From Squalus acanthias (Eukaryota): 64,000 nt of DNA. Made by a program: the position numbers and the translations under genes. Each line of letters opens with the position of its first letter. The first letter of the stretch is position 1. Below, piece after piece: positions 45,323 through 57,613 of this stretch. Below the pieces are notes generated by a model, which saw nothing but the letters and a program-made list of their open reading frames with translations, ran no database searches and was not told where the DNA came from. The stretch lies in contig CM059431.1 of NCBI GenBank assembly GCA_030390025.1, positions 101,744,001 through 101,808,000 on the forward strand, read 5' to 3'.

Positions 45323-45912
45323 CATAAGAACATAAGAAATAGAAGCAGGAGTCGACCATTCGGCCCCTCGAGCCTGCTCCGCCATTCAATAAGATCATGG
45401 CTGATCATCTACCTCATCTCCACTTTCCCGCACTATCCCCATATCCCTTGATTCCCTTAATATTCAAAAATCTATCGATCTCTGTCTTGAATATACTCAA
45501 TGACTGAGCCTCCAAAGCCCTCTGGGGTAGAGAATTCCAAAGATTCACCACCCTCTGAGTGAAGAAATTTCTCCTCATCTCAATCCTAAATGGCCGACCC
45601 CTTATTCTGAGACTATGACCCCTGGTTCTAGACTCCCCAGCCAGGGGAAACATCCTCCCTGCATCTACCCTGTCAAGCCCTGTAAGAATTTTGTATGTTT
45701 CAAGGAGATCACCTCTCATTTTTCTAAACTCGAGAGAATATAGGCCTAGTCTACTCAATCTCTCCTCATAGGACAATCCCCCCATCCCAGGAATCAGTCT
45801 GGTGAACCTTCGTTGCACTCCCTCTATGGCAAGTATATCCTTCCTTAGGTAAGGAGACCAAAACTGTACACAATACTCCAGGTGTGGTCTCACCAAGGCC
45901 CTGTATAATAGC
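45323..45912 (-). mobile_element. CR1 LINE 3' fragment
   Basis: VRPHLEYCVQFWSPY...VQRRFTR open for 160 codons. Confidence 0.9.
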
Positions 45913-47164
45913 AGATCGGGAGTTGGATGGGAATCAATGGCAGATCAGGAGTTGAGTATTTATCCAATTCCCTTTTTGAAAGTTAATATTGAATCTGCTT
46001 CCACCGCCCTTTGAGGCAGCGCATTCCAGATCACAACAACTCGCTGCGTAAATAAAATTCTCCTCACTTTCCAGTAAATTCACCCCATAAATGGAACCAA
46101 AATATTAGCAATCTACTCTATTTTAAAAAAGAAGTCCATCTCCTGTGGCAGTGCACCCAGGGAATCGAGACCAAAAACACTGTCCCCAAGACAAGGAAGG
46201 TTAGAGGGCGGGGAAATAGTTTAACCAAGGCAGGCGCAGGGAGATGAGGCAGATGGAGAGGAGTGTGGGGGTGGGGGGAGAGGAGGGGGGGAGATAACAT
46301 CTTCTGGGTGGGGGGGGGCGCGGCCACCATCTTGTTTCTTGGGGTCGTTCTGTATCCAGTTATTGTCTGGAGATGGGGGGGGGGGTGGGTGGGTGGGATG
46401 AGGGAGAAGGGAGTGGAGAAGAGAGAAAGGGGTAACAGGAGGAGTGGGGAGCACGGGGATGGAAAGAAGGTGGTGGAAGGTGAGGGGAGGAAATGGGTGA
46501 AGAGGCTGAGGAGGGAATAAAGGGAAGGGCCGGGGGGGAGTGATGGAGGGAGGAGAGCAGGGAGGGGATAAGGCGAGGGAGAGAGGTAAAGCAGGCGAGG
46601 AATGGAATGGAGGAGGAGGGGGAACCAGTGAAGGCAAAATTAGGAGAGGAGGAGTGGGAGGAAGGCGAAACAAAGGGAAGGGGAGTCGAAGATGCACGGG
46701 GGAGCTTGCCTCATCAGTGGCGGGGTGTCTGAGTGTAGCGGAGGGGAGTCGGTGGGTTCCTGCTCCCAATTCCTGTCTAGACTCCGGGGCCCGAGCTTGG
46801 GACTCCAACACTCACCGTTCTTGTAATCGGACATCTGTCTCTCTGGCTGCCCACATGCCGTGGTGTCCTGTACTAGATTGCTGGATACACTTCATCAGTA
46901 AGCAATGACATCATTCACCAGTCCTTTCTAACTTCAGTTTTTTTAGCTGGTCGAAGTGACTCTCTCTCTTTATATAAAAGCCTCCCAAGAGGTGTGCACT
47001 GAAATACGTGCACGCCTTAACCCCTCCCTCCTCTCCTCCCTTCTTCACTCCATCGGCCCATCCCGTCCCGTCCCTTCATTCGCTCCTCCCCTCCAGTTGG
47101 CTCCCAGTAGACATTAGTAATCAGTATAGACTCTGCCTCATTCTACCTAATATATTAGAGTAAG

Positions 47165-47357
47165 TGACGTAAGAAAACTACTAGGCACTTGGTCTAAGCG
47201 TTAAACAAAGCTTTAATCAACTGTTTTTCAACATGGAGGTCTAGTTGTGTCCTTCACTAGTTCCTGTTAAAGAATGTCCTGAGCAAGCTGGGCCCATGCC
47301 CGAGTATTTATACTCTCCCTGGAAAGCGCCACCAGCAGGCTGCCCAGTATTATTTCA
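47165..47357 (-). mobile_element. Solo LTR of a family related to the 50700-55124 element
   Basis: TG...CA, 193 bp, flanked by taag/taag; shares tg.cgtaaga, aagctttaatcaact and agtatttat with the full element's LTR. Confidence 0.75.
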
Positions 47358-48339
47358 TAAGTCATTTCCACATGAATGACAAGATTCATGTCATTAAGTA
47401 CACCAAGTATCAGCAGCCAGAAATGATGGCAGGTCATTTCTCAAATACAACAATGTGATGGGAAACAAAACCAGAAAATGCTGCTGTGTGGAGAGAAACT
47501 GAGCCAACGTTTCGGGTTCAGTGACCGGGGGGGAGTGCTTGAAAGCTGCTATGAAGACCTAGGCATTCAGCGGAGGTCATCTTATCGCTACTGTTTGTTC
47601 TGCTATTTCCAAATAAGAATATTGAGGATGTCTTTCAAGAGGTTTTTAAATATTGATTACCTTCAAGGAACAGTCAGGTCTGCGGGGAAGGTGCCTTTCT
47701 GCTCGGCTCACTTGGTTGTACGTCTTGCCCCTGAGGTCAGAGGTTGTGTGTTCAGAACCCTGCTCCGGGAATCGAACCCCCAACACCCAGGCTGACACTT
47801 TCAGGAGTGTTGTCTTTCAGATAAGATCTTTAACCGAGGCCCCGTCTGCCTGTTCAGGTGGATGTAAGAGATCCCATAACACGAGTTAAACAAGTGCAGG
47901 AGGTTTTCCTGGTGTCCTGGCCAATATTCTTCACTCAACCAATGTAACTTTAAAAAAAAAACAGATTAACTGGCCCTTGTTCTCATTTGCTGTGTGCAGA
48001 ATTGGGTCTCACATTTGCCAACAAAATCACTTGTGATTGCACTTCCAAAGCAATTCAGTGGTTGTGATTGGGACATCCTCTGGTGATTTATCAATGCAAG
48101 TTCTTTATTTTTTTCTTCTCCCAGTTTTATAACATACTAGTAGTCTACTTCCAAGAATTTAGTTTGGTGATTTTCTGAGTTGGGATTCTCTCTCCGCTAC
48201 ATTGCTCTGTGGCATAACCAACCAGGGGGTTGTGTGTCTCGCACCAGGCTTCATTGGAAACTCTGGCAAGGGGCTGAGACGCAATGGGGAGTTGTCCAAC
48301 GCCAGGATATTCTGAATTCCTCAGCGGGCAGAGTGGTTT

Positions 48340-49525: not shown

Positions 49526-49704
49526 GTAGGACCGTCATCTTCCGTTACCTTACATAACGCATTAACTTTCAAACAAAGTCGGCACTTGATGAGCAAATTG
49601 AACTCCAGTTCCCAAGCGCTATATTTCCATTGGAAATTTGGGAATCTACATAAGTTATAACCTCTCCGTCCTTAAATAAACTAATCAGGAGCCCCAACCT
49701 GATG

Positions 49705-50120
49705 AGTCCTTCTTTACTCCAGAAAAGAGAAGGCTGAGGGGCGACCTGATTGAGGTCTTTAAAATTATGAAGGGGTTTGATAGGGTAGGCGTAGAGAAGG
49801 TGTTTCCACTTGTGGGGGAGACCAGAACTAGGGGCCATCAATATAAGATAGTCACTAATAAATCCAATAGGGAATTCAGGAGAAACTTCTTTACCCAGAG
49901 AGTGGGGAGAATGTGGAACTCGCTCCCACAGGGAGTGGTTGAGGCGAATAGCAGAGATGCATTTAAGGGGAAGCTGGATAAACACATGAGGGAGAAAGGA
50001 ATAGAAGGATATGTTGACAGGGTGAGATGAAGTCGGGGTGGGAGGAGGCTCGTGTGGAGCATAAACACCGGCACGGACCAGTTGGGCCGAATGGCCTGTT
50101 TCTGTGCTGTAAATTCTAGG
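49705..50120 (+). mobile_element. CR1 LINE 3' fragment
   Basis: RRLRGDLIEVFKIMKGFDRV remnant. Confidence 0.85.
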
Positions 50121-50699
50121 TAAATGATTTTGCTTTCAAAAGCATTCATGTGTGGGTGTCAGATGGGGATGTGAAACGTATTTGTATTTCCCTTGATACG
50201 TCACACATGGATACATCTTCTCCCAGTCTGTAGTAACCGTGCATTCGAAGCTTAATGACTGTTTGATACGATACTGCAAGGTATGGCTCTGCCATCACAC
50301 GTACAGGGTTTTGATTCTGGATTGATGATGGTCAACTTTATTAATGTACAGCAGACTGATAATGTAACGTCATCCAGCTTAGAGTAGGTGGTCCATGCCT
50401 TAATGTCCAGACATGCTGTCCCGTGCAAGTGTCCAACATCAATCCTCCGCAGAGTCAGTTTACAGTGATTTTTTAAAATTTCTCTCTTTACTCTTTAGGG
50501 TAATCAGAGGTAAGATCAACCAGAGCTTTAAACTTTCCTAACTAATTGGTTTTTATTGACATTGAAGTGCAACAGGTTTTACAGCTAGAGGTTGATACAA
50601 CCTTTCAGTCAGAAATGTAACACGAAACTCCGAATGGCCAATTCTTTCTGCTTCGGGAGACTGAGGGGTTAATATTCCATCAACATTCTGCGTGGTGTT

Positions 50700-50877
50700 T
50701 GTCGTAAGAGTGAACTTAAAGTAAGCTTTAATCAACTAAAAAGGTGCTACATACAAAAGAGGTCTTACTCTATGCCTCTCCAGGATCCAACTGATCAGTC
50801 CAGTATTTATCCTGGACTAATCACAGGAAGTGATGCAATAAAGTTCGAGTCACAGGAAGCTGTATTGTGTTACCACA
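50700..50877 (-). repeat. 3' LTR, 178 bp
   Basis: Identical to 54931-55124 except for a 16-bp deletion. Confidence 0.95.
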
Positions 50878-50889
50878 TTCTCCCCCCCC
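50878..50889 (-). other. Polypurine tract
   Basis: - strand ggggggggagaa directly before the 3' LTR. Confidence 0.9.
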
Positions 50890-50895
50890 AAAAGA

Positions 50896-53800
50896 TTAGG
50901 AGGCCGGGATGCTCCCTCCATTTCGTAGCCGCTGGACGAGGGAGAGCCGCACCCGTTTGGGTTCTCGTAGCGGTAGAGGGTCCCTAGCCCGTTTACCCGT
51001 CGCGGGCCGTGGACCAGAGTCCGAGTGATCCAGCCCGCTCTGTGAGGGGTCAGGACGATCCTGACTGTGTACTGGTGCCCGAACGGGTGTCGGGCAGGGC
51101 TGTGGCAGATCCGTTTCCGAGCGTACGGTACGGGGTGGATCGTGGCTGCGCGTGCGAGCCCCGACGGGCTCATAGTCAGTCTGCCCCAGGTCGGCACGCT
51201 GGAGTGAGGTACCAGCCGGCGTCAGATCCAGATCGTGATGAGAGGCACCTGGCGAGCCCAGAGATGTACCTGGTACAATATCATCCCCTGGTGTCCCTCT
51301 ATGTTTTGGCGGGCAGGGAGCCAGATCCCGCAATGACACGGTAGATTCCCGACCGTCAGGATACCGAATATAGGCGTAGGTAGGTTTGACGTCAGTGAGC
51401 TCAACCTCATCTACCAGGGGGTCATTCTTAGACGCCCGGACATATCTTCGGAGTAGCACTGGTCCCGGTGCAGTCAGCCACGACGGGAGAGATATCCCAT
51501 AGGATGAGCGACGCTGAAATCGGAAGAACCGTTCATGAGGCGTCGTATTCATGGCGGTCGAAAGGAGGGACCGTGTGGAGTGTAATGCGTCTGGAAGTAC
51601 TGCTTCCCATTGCTGGTTGGGTAGGCCCCGAGATCTCAAAGCCAGACGTACCGCATTCCAGATGATGGCGTTAAAACGCTCGACTTGCCCATTCCCGACC
51701 GGATGATAAGGCGTTGTTTTGCTGGCAGCAATACCCCGTTCCGAGAGATAGGCCTTGAGTTCTCCTGACATAAAAGAAGGGCCCCGATCCGAATGAACAT
51801 AGGATGCTATGCCACAGAAAGCAAATACCTGCTCAAGGCAGCTGATAACCGTGGTCGTCAGCATATTGGGGCAGGGAAAGGCAAACGGAAAACAGGAATA
51901 CTCATCGACCATGGTCAATAGATAAGTGTTGCGAGTTGAAGAGGGCAACGGCCCCTTAAAATCGATGCTAAGCCGTTGCATTGGCTGGGTCGCATGTATG
52001 AGTATACCACCCGAGGGGCGGAAAAACCGAGGTTTCAATTCCGCACAGACTCTGCAGTCCGAGCACATCTTCTTTACATCCCCGGTAGAGAATGGGAGAT
52101 TTCGGGACCGCACGAAGTGTAGCATGCGAGTAACGCCCGGATGACACAACCCATCATGGATGTCTACGAGCGTAGAGGGTGCCATGGCGGAGCAGAATGC
52201 TCGTGTGAGGGTATCCGGAGCCACATTCTCCTTGCCAGGTCGATAGTGGATGGTGTAACCAAAAGAGGCCAATTCCAGCCGCCAAAGCTGGATTTTATTA
52301 TTTTTAATTTTGGTCCGTTTTCGATTATCGAGCATGAAGGCGACCGATCGCTGGTCCGTGATTAAGGTAAAGTGCTGGCGAGCTAGGAGATGACTCCACT
52401 TCCGTACTGCCTCTATGATGGCTGTAGCTTCTTTCTCGACTGGAGGATAATGTAGCTCGGCCCCTTGAAAAGTCCTGGACAAAAATGCCACCGGACGACC
52501 TTCCTGATTCAGAGTGGCCGAGATCGCCATCTCCGAGGCATCACACTCAACAACAAAAGGAAGACTCTCATCGATGGAGTGAAAAGCCGCTTTCTCCAAC
52601 TGTTTTTTCAGGAGGTTAAAGGCTGCAACAGCCGCTGTGTCTAGTGGGAATGTGCTGGCCTTCAGTAGAGGTTGGATTCGGTCCGAGAAGTTAGGAATCC
52701 ATTTAGCATAGTATGCAAACAGGCCGAGGGCCCGGCGCAAGGAGGCCGGATTCTTAGGTGGCGGGAGTTCTTGGAGTGGGCGAAGCCTTTCAGGGTCAGG
52801 TTTAATGATGCCATTGCCCACACAATAGCCAAGGATGTTGATGGTTGGTTGTGACTCAATGGATTTAGCCGCATTTAATGTCAAATTACGGTGCTGGAGT
52901 GCATCCCAAAATCGTTGGAGATTGGCGTCATGTTCCCGCTGATTGCGACCTGCGACAGTAATATTGTCCAGATAAGGAAACGTATCCTTCAAGTCTTCCT
53001 GTTTGACCAGGTCATCCATTGCTCGCTGGAAGACAGCCACTCCATTAGTGACCCCAAAGGGGAGGCGACGAAATTGATACAGCCGTCCATTGGCTTCAAA
53101 GGCCGTATACTGCTTGTCTGAGACCTTCAAGGGTACCTGATGATAGGCACTTTTCAGATCACATGTTGAGAACACCGTGTACTCAGCCAATTTATTAACC
53201 ATATCATCGATGCGCGGCAATGGGTATGCATCCAAGTCCGTATATTGATTGATGGTCTGTGAATAGTCAATGCACAGCCGTTTCTTGTGAGGTTGTAGAG
53301 GGTTCTTAACAATAACGACCTGGGCGCGCCATGGCGACGAACAAGGCTCGATGATATCCTCTGCTAAAAGCCGAGAAATCTCAGCCGCAATAAAAGACTG
53401 GTCTTCCTGACTGAAATGTCGTGACTTTGTTATAATCGGTTTGCATCGAGGAGGGATACTGGTAAACAGTGAGGGTTCATCCAGTGAAGCTGCTGACAAT
53501 GCACAGAACGGTAATCGAGGTAGTATATTAGAAATAGTGAGTTCAGGTTTGGATCCGCCGAACTCAATGGTGAGCTTCTTATGCTGCTTTTGAAAATCCA
53601 GCCCTAAGATAAGATCACTACATAAGTCCTTGAGCACCAAAAGCCGGGTGGAGGGATACCTGTGACCATTAAGTGTTATTTCAACCATACAAAAGCCAGA
53701 AATTCTGGTATTAAGTGATGACTGAGCCATCGCAATTGCCTGGTCCGATGGGAAAACATGCAGCTTTAACTCTGCAACAATCTGTTCCCTAATGAAACTA

Positions 53801-54852
53801 TCAGTGCTACCGGAGTCAATTAAGGCATCTAAAGTATGTCCATTAATTGATGCTTTTGTAGCTGCATGGAATAGGTTCTGAGGACAAGCAGCTGTAATTG
53901 GTGTCGTTGCACAAAGAGTGGCTGAAACTCTATGTGTGTTTCTTCGAGAGGAAACCCGAGAGGAAGCACGATAGATTTTAGCCGGAACATCTTGATAGGC
54001 CCTTACCGGGGCAGTTCGGTAGGACTTAGCTTGATAAGCCCTCGTAGAGGCTCTTGATAGGCAAACCTTTGCAAAATGACCCTTTTTGTTGCAATGACTG
54101 CAAAACGCATTGCGAGCAGGGCAGAATTTCCGAGGGTGAAACTCATCACCACAAAAGAAGCATTTCTTAGATTGCCAAGAGGCTGCCACAGTGGGGTCAT
54201 CATCCTCTTCATCAGTGAAGTCATCAGATTGATCGTCAGGGATAAAGTCCTCCCTAATAGAGTTCACCTGTGGCCTCTTAAATTGCCTGACTGTAGTTAA
54301 GGCAGCAGACCGAGGTCTGGGCACTGTATAAAGGTCTGCATTTCTTTTTGCCAGATCTAGAGAGCAAGCCATGTCATAAGCTCTCTGAAGCTCAAGTGTC
54401 TTACTTTCCAGTAGACGCTGGCATATAAATGGGGAGGCAAGCCCGCAGATGAAAGCATCACGGATCATTTCTTCACGGTACAGCTCAGCTGAGGCCGCCT
54501 GAAAGTTACAGTCCATACTAAGTCTGCGAAGCTCTTGGAGGAATTTATCAATGGATTCCTCCGGCCCTTGTTGGGCTGTAGCTAGTAGATGTCTGGCATA
54601 GACCTCATTCGGTGTCTTAGTATATAGTCTCTTAAGCGTCCGAATTGCCTCCTCGTAACTGCCCCATTCCTCCACATACTGAAATACATTCGGGGTGACA
54701 CAGTTGATGAGTATCCGCAACTTTGAGTCATCATCAGCCTTGCAATATTCAAGAAAATTGTCAAACGTGCGATACCAGTGTTTCCACACCTTACTGGCTG
54801 CTGGGGTGTTTGGTTCCAAGTCAAGACGCGATGGTTTAAGGATGTTTTCCAT
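50896..54852 (-). CDS. Gag-Pol polyprotein, 1318 aa
   Basis: Two CX2CX4HX4C knuckles (CFFCGDEFHPRKFC, CSHCNKKGHFAKVC), protease LIDSGS, RT (DLKSAYHQ, LPFG, YLDN), RNase H (CDAS, EKE, TDQ, PDTLTR), integrase HHCC + IDF/SDRG/VERFN. Confidence 0.95.
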   Translation of the reverse strand: MENILKPSRLDLEPNTPAASKVWKHWYRTFDNFLEYCKADDDSKLRILINCVTPNVFQYVEEWGSYEEAIRTLKRLYTKTPNEVYARHLLATAQQGPEESIDKFLQELRRLSMDCNFQAASAELYREEMIRDAFICGLASPFICQRLLESKTLELQRAYDMACSLDLAKRNADLYTVPRPRSAALTTVRQFKRPQVNSIREDFIPDDQSDDFTDEEDDDPTVAASWQSKKCFFCGDEFHPRKFCPARNAFCSHCNKKGHFAKVCLSRASTRAYQAKSYRTAPVRAYQDVPAKIYRASSRVSSRRNTHRVSATLCATTPITAACPQNLFHAATKASINGHTLDALIDSGSTDSFIREQIVAELKLHVFPSDQAIAMAQSSLNTRISGFCMVEITLNGHRYPSTRLLVLKDLCSDLILGLDFQKQHKKLTIEFGGSKPELTISNILPRLPFCALSAASLDEPSLFTSIPPRCKPIITKSRHFSQEDQSFIAAEISRLLAEDIIEPCSSPWRAQVVIVKNPLQPHKKRLCIDYSQTINQYTDLDAYPLPRIDDMVNKLAEYTVFSTCDLKSAYHQVPLKVSDKQYTAFEANGRLYQFRRLPFGVTNGVAVFQRAMDDLVKQEDLKDTFPYLDNITVAGRNQREHDANLQRFWDALQHRNLTLNAAKSIESQPTINILGYCVGNGIIKPDPERLRPLQELPPPKNPASLRRALGLFAYYAKWIPNFSDRIQPLLKASTFPLDTAAVAAFNLLKKQLEKAAFHSIDESLPFVVECDASEMAISATLNQEGRPVAFLSRTFQGAELHYPPVEKEATAIIEAVRKWSHLLARQHFTLITDQRSVAFMLDNRKRTKIKNNKIQLWRLELASFGYTIHYRPGKENVAPDTLTRAFCSAMAPSTLVDIHDGLCHPGVTRMLHFVRSRNLPFSTGDVKKMCSDCRVCAELKPRFFRPSGGILIHATQPMQRLSIDFKGPLPSSTRNTYLLTMVDEYSCFPFAFPCPNMLTTTVISCLEQVFAFCGIASYVHSDRGPSFMSGELKAYLSERGIAASKTTPYHPVGNGQVERFNAIIWNAVRLALRSRGLPNQQWEAVLPDALHSTRSLLSTAMNTTPHERFFRFQRRSSYGISLPSWLTAPGPVLLRRYVRASKNDPLVDEVELTDVKPTYAYIRYPDGRESTVSLRDLAPCPPKHRGTPGDDIVPGTSLGSPGASHHDLDLTPAGTSLQRADLGQTDYEPVGARTRSHDPPRTVRSETDLPQPCPTPVRAPVHSQDRPDPSQSGLDHSDSGPRPATGKRARDPLPLREPKRVRLSLVQRLRNGGSIPAS

Positions 54853-54930
54853 GATGGGTGATTCCCTGGATCCTTAGTTCCGAGTTCGTCCAAAAAGTTT
54901 GAGTGCGAAGTTTTCCAAAGTTGATTAAAT

Positions 54931-55124
54931 TGTCGTAAGAATGAGCCTTATGCGTGGTGAACTTAAAGTAAGCTTTAATCAACTAAAAAGGTGCTACATA
55001 CAAAAGAGGTCTTACTCTATGCCTCTCCAGGATCCAACTGATCAGTCCAGTATTTATCCTGGACTAATCACAGGAAGTGATGCAATAAAGTTCGAGTCAC
55101 AGGAAGCTGTATTGTGTTACCACA
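54931..55124 (-). repeat. 5' LTR, 194 bp
   Basis: - strand TGTGGTAAC...TTACGACA with GATAAATA (55051-55058) and ATTAAA (54974-54979). Confidence 0.95.
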
Positions 55125-55149
55125 GTGTTCATCTGGTCTGTCTCTGGAA

Positions 55150-55690
55150 TGTGTCCTCAAACTTACTCAAATTGCTGCGTTCAGTTCTGGACACCTCAGG
55201 AAGGTTATATTGGCCTTGGAGGGGGGGCAGCGCAGACTCACCAGATTGATACCGGAGCTAAAAGGGGCTAAATTATGAGGACATGCTGCCTAGACTAGGC
55301 TTGTATTCCCTTGAATACCGAAGATTAGGGGCGACCTAATTGAGGTGTTTAAGATAATTATGGTAGAGAGAAACTATTTCCTCTGGTGGGGGGAGTCCAG
55401 AACAAGGGGCACAACCTTAAAATTAGAGCCAGGCCGTTCAGGGGTGATGTCAGGAAGCACTTCTTCACACAAAGGGTAGTGGAAATCTGGAACTCTCTTC
55501 CCCAAAAAGCTGTTGAGGCTGGGGGTCAATTGAAAATGTCAAAACTGAGATTGATAGATTTTTTTTTAGTTAAGAGTATTAAGGGTTACGGAACCAAGGC
55601 GGGTAGATGGAGTTAAGATACAGATCAGCCGTGATCTCATTGAATGGCGGAACAGGCTCGAGGGGGCTGAACGGCCTCCTCCTGTTCCTG
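55150..55690 (+). mobile_element. CR1 LINE 3' fragment
   Basis: Family match to 7265-7684. Confidence 0.8.
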
Positions 55691-56124
55691 TGGCTGCCTC
55701 ACTTGTTCCCTCTGAGCAGAGGGCGTTGGGAAATTTGCAAGAAGGAATATTGGAGGATGAATTGACCCAGACCTTAAATGCTACCAGATTAATGGTGTCG
55801 TTGGTGGGAGGCCTGAGGGTTGATTAAAGGTCCAGCTTCTTGGCCAAAGAAATGAGTCATGTGAACTTTATCCAGGAGGTTTAAAGAAAGAGGCCATTTT
55901 ATAAAGGCTTGTGTTTCCGAGAACTGTTTGATCGGTGACAGTGGACTGTAAAAATAACTAGACTTGGTATTTCCGATGCACCTCAGCCCTCCTTGCCATT
56001 ATTTACAGCCCCTGTATTCAGGCTCCTCGAGACCTCATCTGTCTCAGGAGCTTTGTAACTCTGAGATAATGTTAAGAGAAATTCATTAAAATGTATACTT
56101 GAAAATCTGGGTTGAAGAGTGCTT

Positions 56125-57058
56125 ATAGGAACAGGAGGAGACCATTCAGCCCCTCGAGCCTGTTCCGCCATTCGATGAGATCATGGCTGATCTGCGACCT
56201 AACTCCATATACCCGCCTTTGCCCCGTATCCCTAAACCTAGAAACATAGAAGATAGGAGCAGGAATAGGCCATTCGGCCCCTCTAGCCTGCTCCGCCATT
56301 CAATGCAATCATGGCTGATCATCCAAATTCAGAACCCTGTCCCTGCTTTCCCCCCATATCCCTTGATCCCTTTAGCCTTAAGAAATATATCCAACTCCTT
56401 CTTGAATATATTTAATGCATTGGCCTCTACTGCCTTCTGTGGTAGAGAATTCCACAGGTTCACCACTCTCTGGGTGAAGAAATTCCTCCTAATTTCTGTC
56501 CTAAATGGCTTACCCCTTATCCTTAGACTGTGACCCCTGGTTCTGGACTCCCCGACCATCGGGAACATCCTTCCTGCATCTAGTCTGTCCAGTCCTGTCA
56601 GAATTTTATAAGTTTCAATGAGATACCCTCTAATTCTTCTAAACTCCAGTGAGTATAAGCCCAATCGACCCAATCTCTCCTCATACATCATTCCTGCCAT
56701 CCCAGGTATCAGCCTGGTGAATCTTCGCTGAACTCCTTCCATGGCAAGAACATCCTTCCTCAGATAAGGAGAACCTCCTTCCTCAGATAACACCTTTGGT
56801 TAACAGAAATCTATCAATCTCAGATTTAAAATTAACAATTGATCTAGCATCAACTGGCGTTTGCAGCAGAGAGTTCTAAACTTCTACCACCCTTTGTGTG
56901 TAGAAGTGTTTCCTAACTTCACTCCTGAAAGTTCTGGCTCTAATTTTTAGACTATGCCCCCTAGTCCTAGAATCCCCAACCAGCGGAAATAGTTTCTCTC
57001 TATCTACCCTATCTGTTCCCCTTAATATCCTGAAAACTTCGATCAGATCACCCCTTAA
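56125..57058 (-). mobile_element. CR1 fragment with a younger nested CR1 (about 56240-56772)
   Basis: SPYLRKDVLAMEGVQRRFTR ORF inside a second CR1 tail. Confidence 0.85.
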
Positions 57059-57613
57059 AGTCCGCTCTTAAAATCAACTTGCCCAATAAATCTTTTATCT
57101 GTTGTATTTCGAGTCTATAGAGGATAAATTAAAAGTTGCCAGTGATCCTAGAATGCAGCCTGGTCTCCTTGTGAATATGCGAAGAAAAGTGAGAAAACAA
57201 ATGATATAGCTGCTGAAAGGTGCCACTTAAACTTTCCCTGAATCGTTAGCTGTGGGTTTGATTCCGAGCGACCGTTGAATCTTTGCAGCGGAGAGCCGAC
57301 CGTATTTGGCCGTTCCTGACCATCCTATTGTGCGACAAATCTGGCTGCTTGGTTCCTCTCCAATTCAACTCGTTGAATCTTTCCAGTAGACGCTCTCCTG
57401 CCTGTGTTGTCAGTTCAGTGGTCCCCAGGAGGCATCGTGTTGGGAATAACCGCAGTGCACAAGTTCATGCCAATTAGTTGCAAGTCCCAAAGGGAATACA
57501 GTGAATTCTGAGGAAAATTGGATGTCAAGTCGGTGTGATTTTACAAGAGTAGAACTGTCTTTTCTTTTATTAAATTTGACAGAATAACATGAAACTACTT
57601 GTTTGTTTTGTAG

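Follow-up and report, generated by a model that had tools for sequence, protein, structure and literature searches.

In Tf1 of fission yeast, self-priming has been shown experimentally. [quoted passage not shown] The self-primed groups named in the relevant part of PMC6317226 are Tf1/sushi, Tcn1 and copia TAR, and the self-primed elements named in PMC6934838 are fungal only. Plant Tcn1 chromoviruses and Ty1/copia TAR elements (Houba, Osr-1) resemble the element reported here in that they have no tRNA site and in that the sequence past the LTR is complementary to their own LTR (PMC6317226); however, they belong to other lineages or to another superfamily, occur in plants and not in animals, and their self-priming has only been predicted. 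A likeness also exists with the U5-IR and U5-leader stems of retroviruses, in which the LTR pairs with sequence just past it, near the start of reverse transcription (as outlined in PMC3601003), but the retroviral stems flank a tRNA-bound site, whereas here the paired 3' arm is the sole candidate primer site.

The element that we describe shares with Tf1 and Tf2 of S. pombe, Tj1 of S. japonicus and the Tf1/sushi elements an LTR-adjacent primer site that is complementary to the element's own LTR RNA and is not of the tRNA type, as well as, with the Tf1 group, a duplex of about 11 nt in the copy under study, a single gag-pol frame and an RNase H domain. In contrast to Tf1/sushi elements, it carries no integrase chromodomain and its Gag has two zinc knuckles; unlike the Tf1 group, its lineage has an arm that nearly always ends in TTAAA followed by RCC, and a loop of only 24-68 nt between the arms. 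Within the sources covered, self-priming is regarded as a hallmark of Tf1/sushi chromoviruses, and here the same signature extends throughout a chromodomain-less animal lineage. We found no description of self-priming in Mag, SURL or Jule, nor in any animal gypsy clade that lacks a chromodomain, in a literature whose older part was incompletely covered and may hold an earlier report.

An LTR retrotransposon and the inverted repeat at its proposed primer site

The window, by which we mean the whole 64-kb stretch of DNA that was analysed, carries on its minus strand a complete, apparently intact Ty3/gypsy LTR retrotransposon of 4,425 bp. Its 5' LTR (194 nt, TGTGG...ACGACA; 54931-55124, minus strand) forms a direct repeat with the 3' LTR (178 nt; 50700-50877, minus strand), which holds its own copy of the arm described below at 50737-50727. 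The pair is identical over 178 nt, the sole difference being one 16-nt indel, a segment of the 5' LTR (54941-54956, minus strand) that is absent from the 3' LTR; the long U5 form that includes this segment is the common form in contigs of other runs (records 16 and 32). The ends of the LTRs could be placed because the second LTR copy, a target-site duplication, a polypurine tract and an empty site are all available: the duplication AACAC was read directly at 55125-55129, with its second copy at 50695-50699; the polypurine tract GGGGGGGGAGAA (50878-50889, minus strand) abuts the 3' LTR; and one contig of run X1 represents the empty site, joining 50695 to 55126. Polypurine tracts in relatives read ...GAGAA/TG or ...GTAAA/TG, with the slash at the LTR border.

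A single gag-pol frame of 1318 aa (50899-54852, minus strand), recognised as an open reading frame and by Pfam, encodes two CCHC knuckles, protease, reverse transcriptase (RT), RNase H and integrase. The Pfam domain order between the LTRs, protease - RT - RNase H - integrase, is that of Ty3/gypsy elements (Metaviridae), and the closest solved protein is Ty3 Gag-Pol (E 6.7e-59). The two zinc knuckles of Gag, read directly, occupy residues 231-264 (231-244 and 251-264; 54061-54162, minus strand), and their ligands C231, C234, H239, C244, C251, C254, H259 and C264 are invariant across 34 aligned proteins. Pfam finds no chromodomain over the whole gag-pol protein, the last 234 residues match no Pfam family at E up to 10, and the chromodomain PF00385 is annotated in none of the 120 best relatives. 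A search of Rfam over the element at E up to 1 gave no matches.

On the minus strand, the 5' LTR ends ...TCTTACGACA and is followed by a lone A (54930) and then by TTTAATCAACT (54929-54919), which begins 2 nt past the LTR, at the position of a primer-binding site, and does not start with TGG. This 3' arm is the perfect reverse complement of a 5' arm within the LTR, AGTTGATTAAA (54974-54984, minus strand), the proposed self-primer, whose 3' end lies at 54974. The pairing covers exactly 11 nt, with both flanking positions mismatched, and 44 nt separate the arms. The 11-mer occurs four times in the window against 0.08 expected, a count reached by none of 100 shuffles: once in each of the two LTR copies, once at the site past the LTR and once in a related solo LTR (at 47212-47222). 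Within the 336 nt before gag, 11 nt is the longest perfect inverted repeat, and mononucleotide shuffles give at most 10 (0/100 reach 11). The stem appears in both the minimum-energy and the centroid structure of the predicted fold; it is AU-rich, and because the energy of the fold is ordinary (z 0.44) we do not count it as support.

The first-pass annotation had reported an 11-nt perfect complementarity between the LTR and the sequence past it, 44 nt apart, in a gypsy element without a TGG primer site, with a two-knuckle Gag and without a recognisable integrase chromodomain. On re-reading of the minus strand the complementarity proved exact; the absence of TGG was read directly and extends to all 19 families considered below; both CCHC motifs are present; and the Pfam searches of the whole protein and of its last part agree in finding no chromodomain. 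The description of the element as a non-chromovirus is likewise backed by the absence of this domain, and is an assignment based on domain searches.

We also compared the element with assembled contigs of four public runs (X1, X4, X18 and X14). Among the differences listed (40 of 96) there is no variant within either arm, and a variant of the LTR arm with one extra A, which makes up 13-44% of depth in X4, X18 and X14, takes the pairing to 12 nt. The contigs of the four runs show no transcript starts or ends, and three runs guessed to be RNA resemble DNA: contigs in them break off precisely at 54931, the edge of the LTR, and depth is greater in the flanking repeats, several-fold above that of the element in X4, X18 and X14. 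Approximately 0.5-0.7 of the sampled words of the element (50650-55180) are found in 19 runs (X1-X19) with eight organism labels; these runs span 12 of the 13 studies listed, and the summed contig depth is very high in X1. This sharing of words and the depth in X1 indicate that the family is high-copy, young and common to several species labels.

Conservation and covariation of the pairing

A protein search scored 8000 candidates, of which 1287 were relatives at E up to 0.001. Those with names are found in shrimp, nematode, copepod, tunicate, sea anemone, mussel and catshark/shark records, and the relatives are typically about 1200 aa long on contigs of about 4 kb; two scans of a viral contig collection, by protein and by alignment, found none. 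From an alignment of 34 relatives we fetched 80 related loci from metagenome contigs, with protein identities of 40-68%. In all loci for which both LTRs were found, the sequence directly past the 5' LTR is complementary to a stretch within the same LTR. Twenty-five loci were judgeable, in that the N-terminus of gag was present with at least 120 nt upstream. Under a lenient rule whose false-positive rate is uncalibrated (arms of at least 10 nt, not more than one mismatch between them, and a 3' arm no further than 65 nt before the gag start), 24 of these have an inverted repeat between the LTR and the sequence past it, and the sole exception is L066, at 40% identity. The strict figure, which is the one to rely on, is perfect pairing over 12-18 nt in 16 of the 25; the pairs in L004 (11 nt) and L034 (10 nt) are perfect and shorter, and those in L033, L069, L070, L062, L079 and the second copy in L048 have one mismatch.

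The closest relative, L010 (68% protein identity), pairs over 13 nt around a loop of just 24 nt; its site carries the change TTTAT, which matches the ATAAA at the end of its arm. In the same locus (L010:2960-3065), two copies of AGGAAGGAAGAA followed by TGAC lie before the LTR, 56 nt from each other; either the LTR start is ambiguous or the polypurine tract is duplicated. Two families, L062 (1372-1472) and L053 (1266-1373), have very small LTRs of about 85 and 91 nt, and L062 keeps a pairing of 11 nt with one mismatch in a quite different arm that lacks TTAAA. Where two LTR copies are at hand (L003, L006, L009, L048 and L049), the repeat ends in CA, then comes one A and then the arm; in the window, L002, L004 and L069 this A can be assigned to the LTR as well. 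The distance from the arm to the gag AUG is only 3-25 nt in most relatives, and in several invertebrate families the AUG adjoins or overlaps the 3' arm (L003:5986-6001, L006:5983-6001, L009:5986-6001), so that in these families the untranslated region past the LTR consists entirely of the primer site.

To score covariation, one hairpin per distinct arm pair was aligned for 19 families including that of the window, and the 13 inner pairs were counted. The 5' arm of the window aligns with the arms of the 18 other families and is then followed by GCTT, against RCC(T/A) in the others. Paired combinations fill 94.7% of the 247 cells, both sides have changed in 11 of the 13 pairs (46 cells), and 20 further pair types occur. 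A covariation score of 0.547 compares with 0.145 in shuffles, and none of five measures was reached in 500 shuffles, in a set of families related by descent whose 5' arm anchors were found through the pairing itself; sliding the partner by 1-3 columns reduces pairing to 18-49%. In a separate count, with the LTR end as anchor, 95% are paired; when partners are exchanged between families, this becomes 73% on average and 81% at most, and none of 2000 swaps reaches the observed value. In 9 of 11 families the site matches its own LTR over 11-15 nt, compared with a mean of 5.0 nt for the LTRs of other families.

The specificity extends to small scales. The L003 and L006 groups have different arm pairs within one assembly, and L003 and L009, members of one family, differ by a single compensated change that is carried in both LTRs and in the site. 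At the same time sequence conservation in the arms exceeds what pairing by itself demands: the 3' end of the arm is TTAAA in nearly all families, the exceptions being ATAAA (L010) and AAGA (L062), and position 10 of the arm is a G-C pair in 18 of the 19 families (19 of 19 in the covariation alignment). Because the core AGTTGATTAAA is common to the window, the L009 group (L003/L009), L049 and L032, families at about 50% protein identity, part of the contrast with shuffles reflects shared ancestry. The sequences identify the pairing between the LTR and the region past it as a clade-wide feature and not a product of chance. Complementarity in sister families and covariation between site and LTR had both been put forward as checks on the first reading; the former is kept, L066 apart, and the latter was found across the families, with compensatory changes on both sides. 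The suggestion made from one element, that a chromodomain-less gypsy element primes itself through a self-complementary site, thereby gains support and widens to a probable trait of a lineage, with the pairing present in about 19 related families.

Possible modes of priming

The end of the LTR is, by definition, the position of the 3' end of the minus-strand primer. Since the repeat ends in CA, followed by one A and then the arm, in the five families with two LTR copies, the primer must end in ...TTAAA-3' (ATAAA in L010, AAGA in L062), and this excludes the 3' end of a tRNA, CCA, as the primer. In agreement with this, a TGG start of the site is found in none of the 19 families or the window, where the sequence reads A plus TTTAA..., as in its relatives. 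The window does have a TGG 13 nt past the LTR, but it reads TGA in 437 of 452, 187 of 187 and 277 of 287 of contig depth in X4, X18 and X14 (in X1, in only 40 of 28,329), and is therefore not a conserved tRNA site. There are no tRNA genes in the 64-kb window, and the 36 loci searched gave one doubtful prediction. Half-tRNA and internal-tRNA primers do exist in copia-type elements, according to the section of PMC6317226 concerned, and a host tRNA fragment or another small RNA could be imagined in the same role, or the match could be fortuitous. We regard this as extremely improbable: the 11-mer shuffles, the inverted-repeat shuffles and the covariation exclude chance, and a host RNA would be unable to follow the family-specific changes of the LTR arm. 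That the site follows the changes in the LTR of its own family disfavours any shared host RNA.

The site thus lies where a primer must bind, carries nothing of the tRNA type, and pairs with the LTR lineage-wide with compensatory changes. From position and covariation, we consider it likely that priming resembles that of Tf1, in a lineage that is non-chromoviral and probably belongs to the Mag C-clade (SURL/Jule-like). In the genomic RNA, a stretch of 10-18 nt of the LTR, nearly always ending in TTAAA, would pair with the site 2 nt past the LTR, and the RNase H of the element would cleave the RNA at the 3' end of this stretch, after ...TTAAA and before RCC. The new 3'-OH would be extended through the short U5/R part, and the short strong-stop DNA would transfer to the 3' R. 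The plus strand would later copy the RNA primer, rewriting the primer site, and the arms would stay complementary in each new copy. We infer, as parts of this scheme, that the 5' copy of the arm is the one used, that it lies at or near the 5' end of the RNA, and that RNase H makes the cut. If the RNA primer is copied in each cycle, the perfect pairing in young copies and the propagated change between L003 and L009 would be explained. The conserved TTAAA/RCC junction may mark the RNase H cut, with a possible parallel in the polypurine tracts, which also end in AA before the LTR.

Where transcription starts bears on this scheme. TATA-like boxes precede the arm by 72 nt in the window, by 89 nt in the solo LTR and by 9 nt in L062, and lie at -24 to -38 from the arm in L005, L010, L013, L026, L034, L053 and L069; because these spacings are incoherent between families, the arm cannot be placed at a fixed distance from the start. 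At arm positions 11-10, where the 11-nt core has its 5' edge, a conserved AG comes after a T-rich run; the combination looks like an initiator, which is suggestive only, but pairing often runs 2-7 nt further. The solo LTR (47164-47372, minus strand) is a diverged member of a related family with the arm AGTTGATTAAAGCTT at 47222-47208; it retains the TATAAATA box, together with an AGACCTC block and the end TTCTTACG.CA, and lacks a preceding polypurine tract and a following primer site. Among the 80 loci, poly(A)-tailed contigs as a proxy for transcripts yielded none that was usable.

The same duplex could also act, as the first-pass annotation had suggested, with a geometry other than that of Tf1, the arm lying inside the 5' leader, tens of nucleotides past the start, or the copy in the 3' LTR of the same or a co-packaged RNA serving as the primer. 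A start about 40-60 nt upstream of the arm would follow from the strong TATAAATA box that stands 72 and 89 nt before it in the window LTR and the solo LTR, and the 3' LTR copy of the arm would be present in the RNA wherever the start lies, provided that the poly(A) site comes after the arm; L002, L005 and L069 indeed have AATAAA/ATTAAA hexamers in the loop, past the arm. We judge this geometry unlikely all the same. With an internal arm, the primer would have a 5' tail that the plus strand copies beyond the site, leaving an unpaired 3' flap, and a start far upstream means that the plus-strand step would need extra trimming that is unneeded in Tf1; a primer from the 3' copy would sever R from U3 and require a second RNA as acceptor. 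Furthermore, the arm starts only 34 nt (L053) and 42 nt (L062) from the first base of the LTR, which leaves little RNA to precede it, and the complementarity ends sharply after 10-18 nt, as expected for a primer with a defined 5' end. The stem might instead be a structural signal, akin to the retroviral U5-leader or U5-IR stems or acting in packaging, dimerisation or control of gag translation, while another RNA primes. Stems between the LTR and LTR-adjacent sequence are indeed known around retroviral primer sites, as PMC3601003 relates in the part concerned, and in L003, L006 and L009, where the gag AUG meets the 3' arm, the stem could gate translation. Yet the LTR boundary forces the 3' end of the primer onto the first bases of the 3' arm, the few nucleotides between arm and AUG in most relatives offer no alternative site and no LTR-adjacent TGG, and a host primer would hold the site constant whereas it varies with the LTR of each family. 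A structural role in place of priming is therefore quite improbable, and in those three families an effect of the stem on translation could exist in addition.

The stem could, finally, hide a poly(A) signal in the 5' LTR copy, so that only the 3' copy is used, the partner being present on the 5' side only. The arm contains an ATTAAA in four cases, namely the window, the L003/L009 group, L049 and L032, and an AATAAA in L010, but the hexamer is not kept: the arm has GTTAAA in L001, L002, L006, L007, L048 and L053, TTTAAA in L005 and CTTAAA in L069, and no hexamer in L062. The loops of L002, L005 and L069 contain better signals, and the exact position of the partner at LTR +2 is left unexplained. 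As a replacement for priming this is very improbable, and occlusion of a poly(A) signal could be an added role of the stem. Self-priming in the manner of Tf1 remains the reading that we prefer. A small hairpin (RCCTA...TAGGY) begins right after the arm in 8 of 19 families; over all 19, helices sought as counterparts of the side duplexes of the 'pretzel' average 4.37 bp against 4.19 bp in shuffles, which is no excess.

Lineage and surroundings of the element

The element probably forms part of a large metazoan group of compact Ty3/gypsy elements without a chromodomain, the Mag lineage's C-clade (SURL/Jule-like), an assignment based on its size, single frame, two knuckles, short LTRs, TGT.../...ACA termini and host range. 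It resembles the clade in its length of 4.4 kb, in LTRs of 178-194 nt (85-240 nt in relatives) and in its TGT.../...ACA ends. We take Jule of Xiphophorus to be a member of the Mag C-clade, and the likeness to Jule consists of the single frame and the two knuckles. The Mag C LTRs summarised in PMC3601003 average 174 nt in a training set and have the termini TGTNATRT ... AYANAACA; the same source places the clade in metazoans including vertebrates and counts SURL of sea urchins as a member. Set beside these consensus termini, the window LTR reads TGTGGTAA ... TTACGACA, and L002 (TGTTGTGC ... CTACAACA) and L006 (TGATGTGG ... TCATAACA) match them loosely. In molluscs and annelids the C-clade is reported among the most abundant gypsy clades in the surveys excerpted from PMC6238403 and PMC8220671.

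If self-priming in this lineage is real, annotation tools for LTR elements that rely on tRNA-based rules for the primer site miss or mis-delimit a major animal clade, and the elements would evade host defences that aim 3' tRNA fragments at tRNA primer sites, as discussed in a part of PMC7472051. A second, independent gypsy lineage would stand beside Tf1 for the question of ancestral hairpin priming raised in PMC3601003, and work on how RNase H cleaves an RNA duplex would have a defined substrate in the TTAAA/RCC junction. One might go further and propose that one of the most abundant animal gypsy lineages replicates without host tRNA, its hairpin having arisen independently of Tf1/sushi or being a relic of ancestral hairpin priming; we offer this as a speculation that is at present doubtful.

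Two further observations concern the insertion itself. The host target sequence (50685-50699 and 55125-55133) matches the LTR in CACCACGCA, with 12 of 14 bases, and the match sits exactly at the edge of the 16-nt segment (54941-54956 versus 50700-50710); this likeness may be due to chance or may be a trace of how the window copy arose. The surroundings of the element are other repeats, with three-copy direct repeat families flanking the site (45329-45736 and 56115-57075), and short open frames on either side (49680-50030 and 55353-55616, plus strand) have a common FFTQRV..WNSLP motif.
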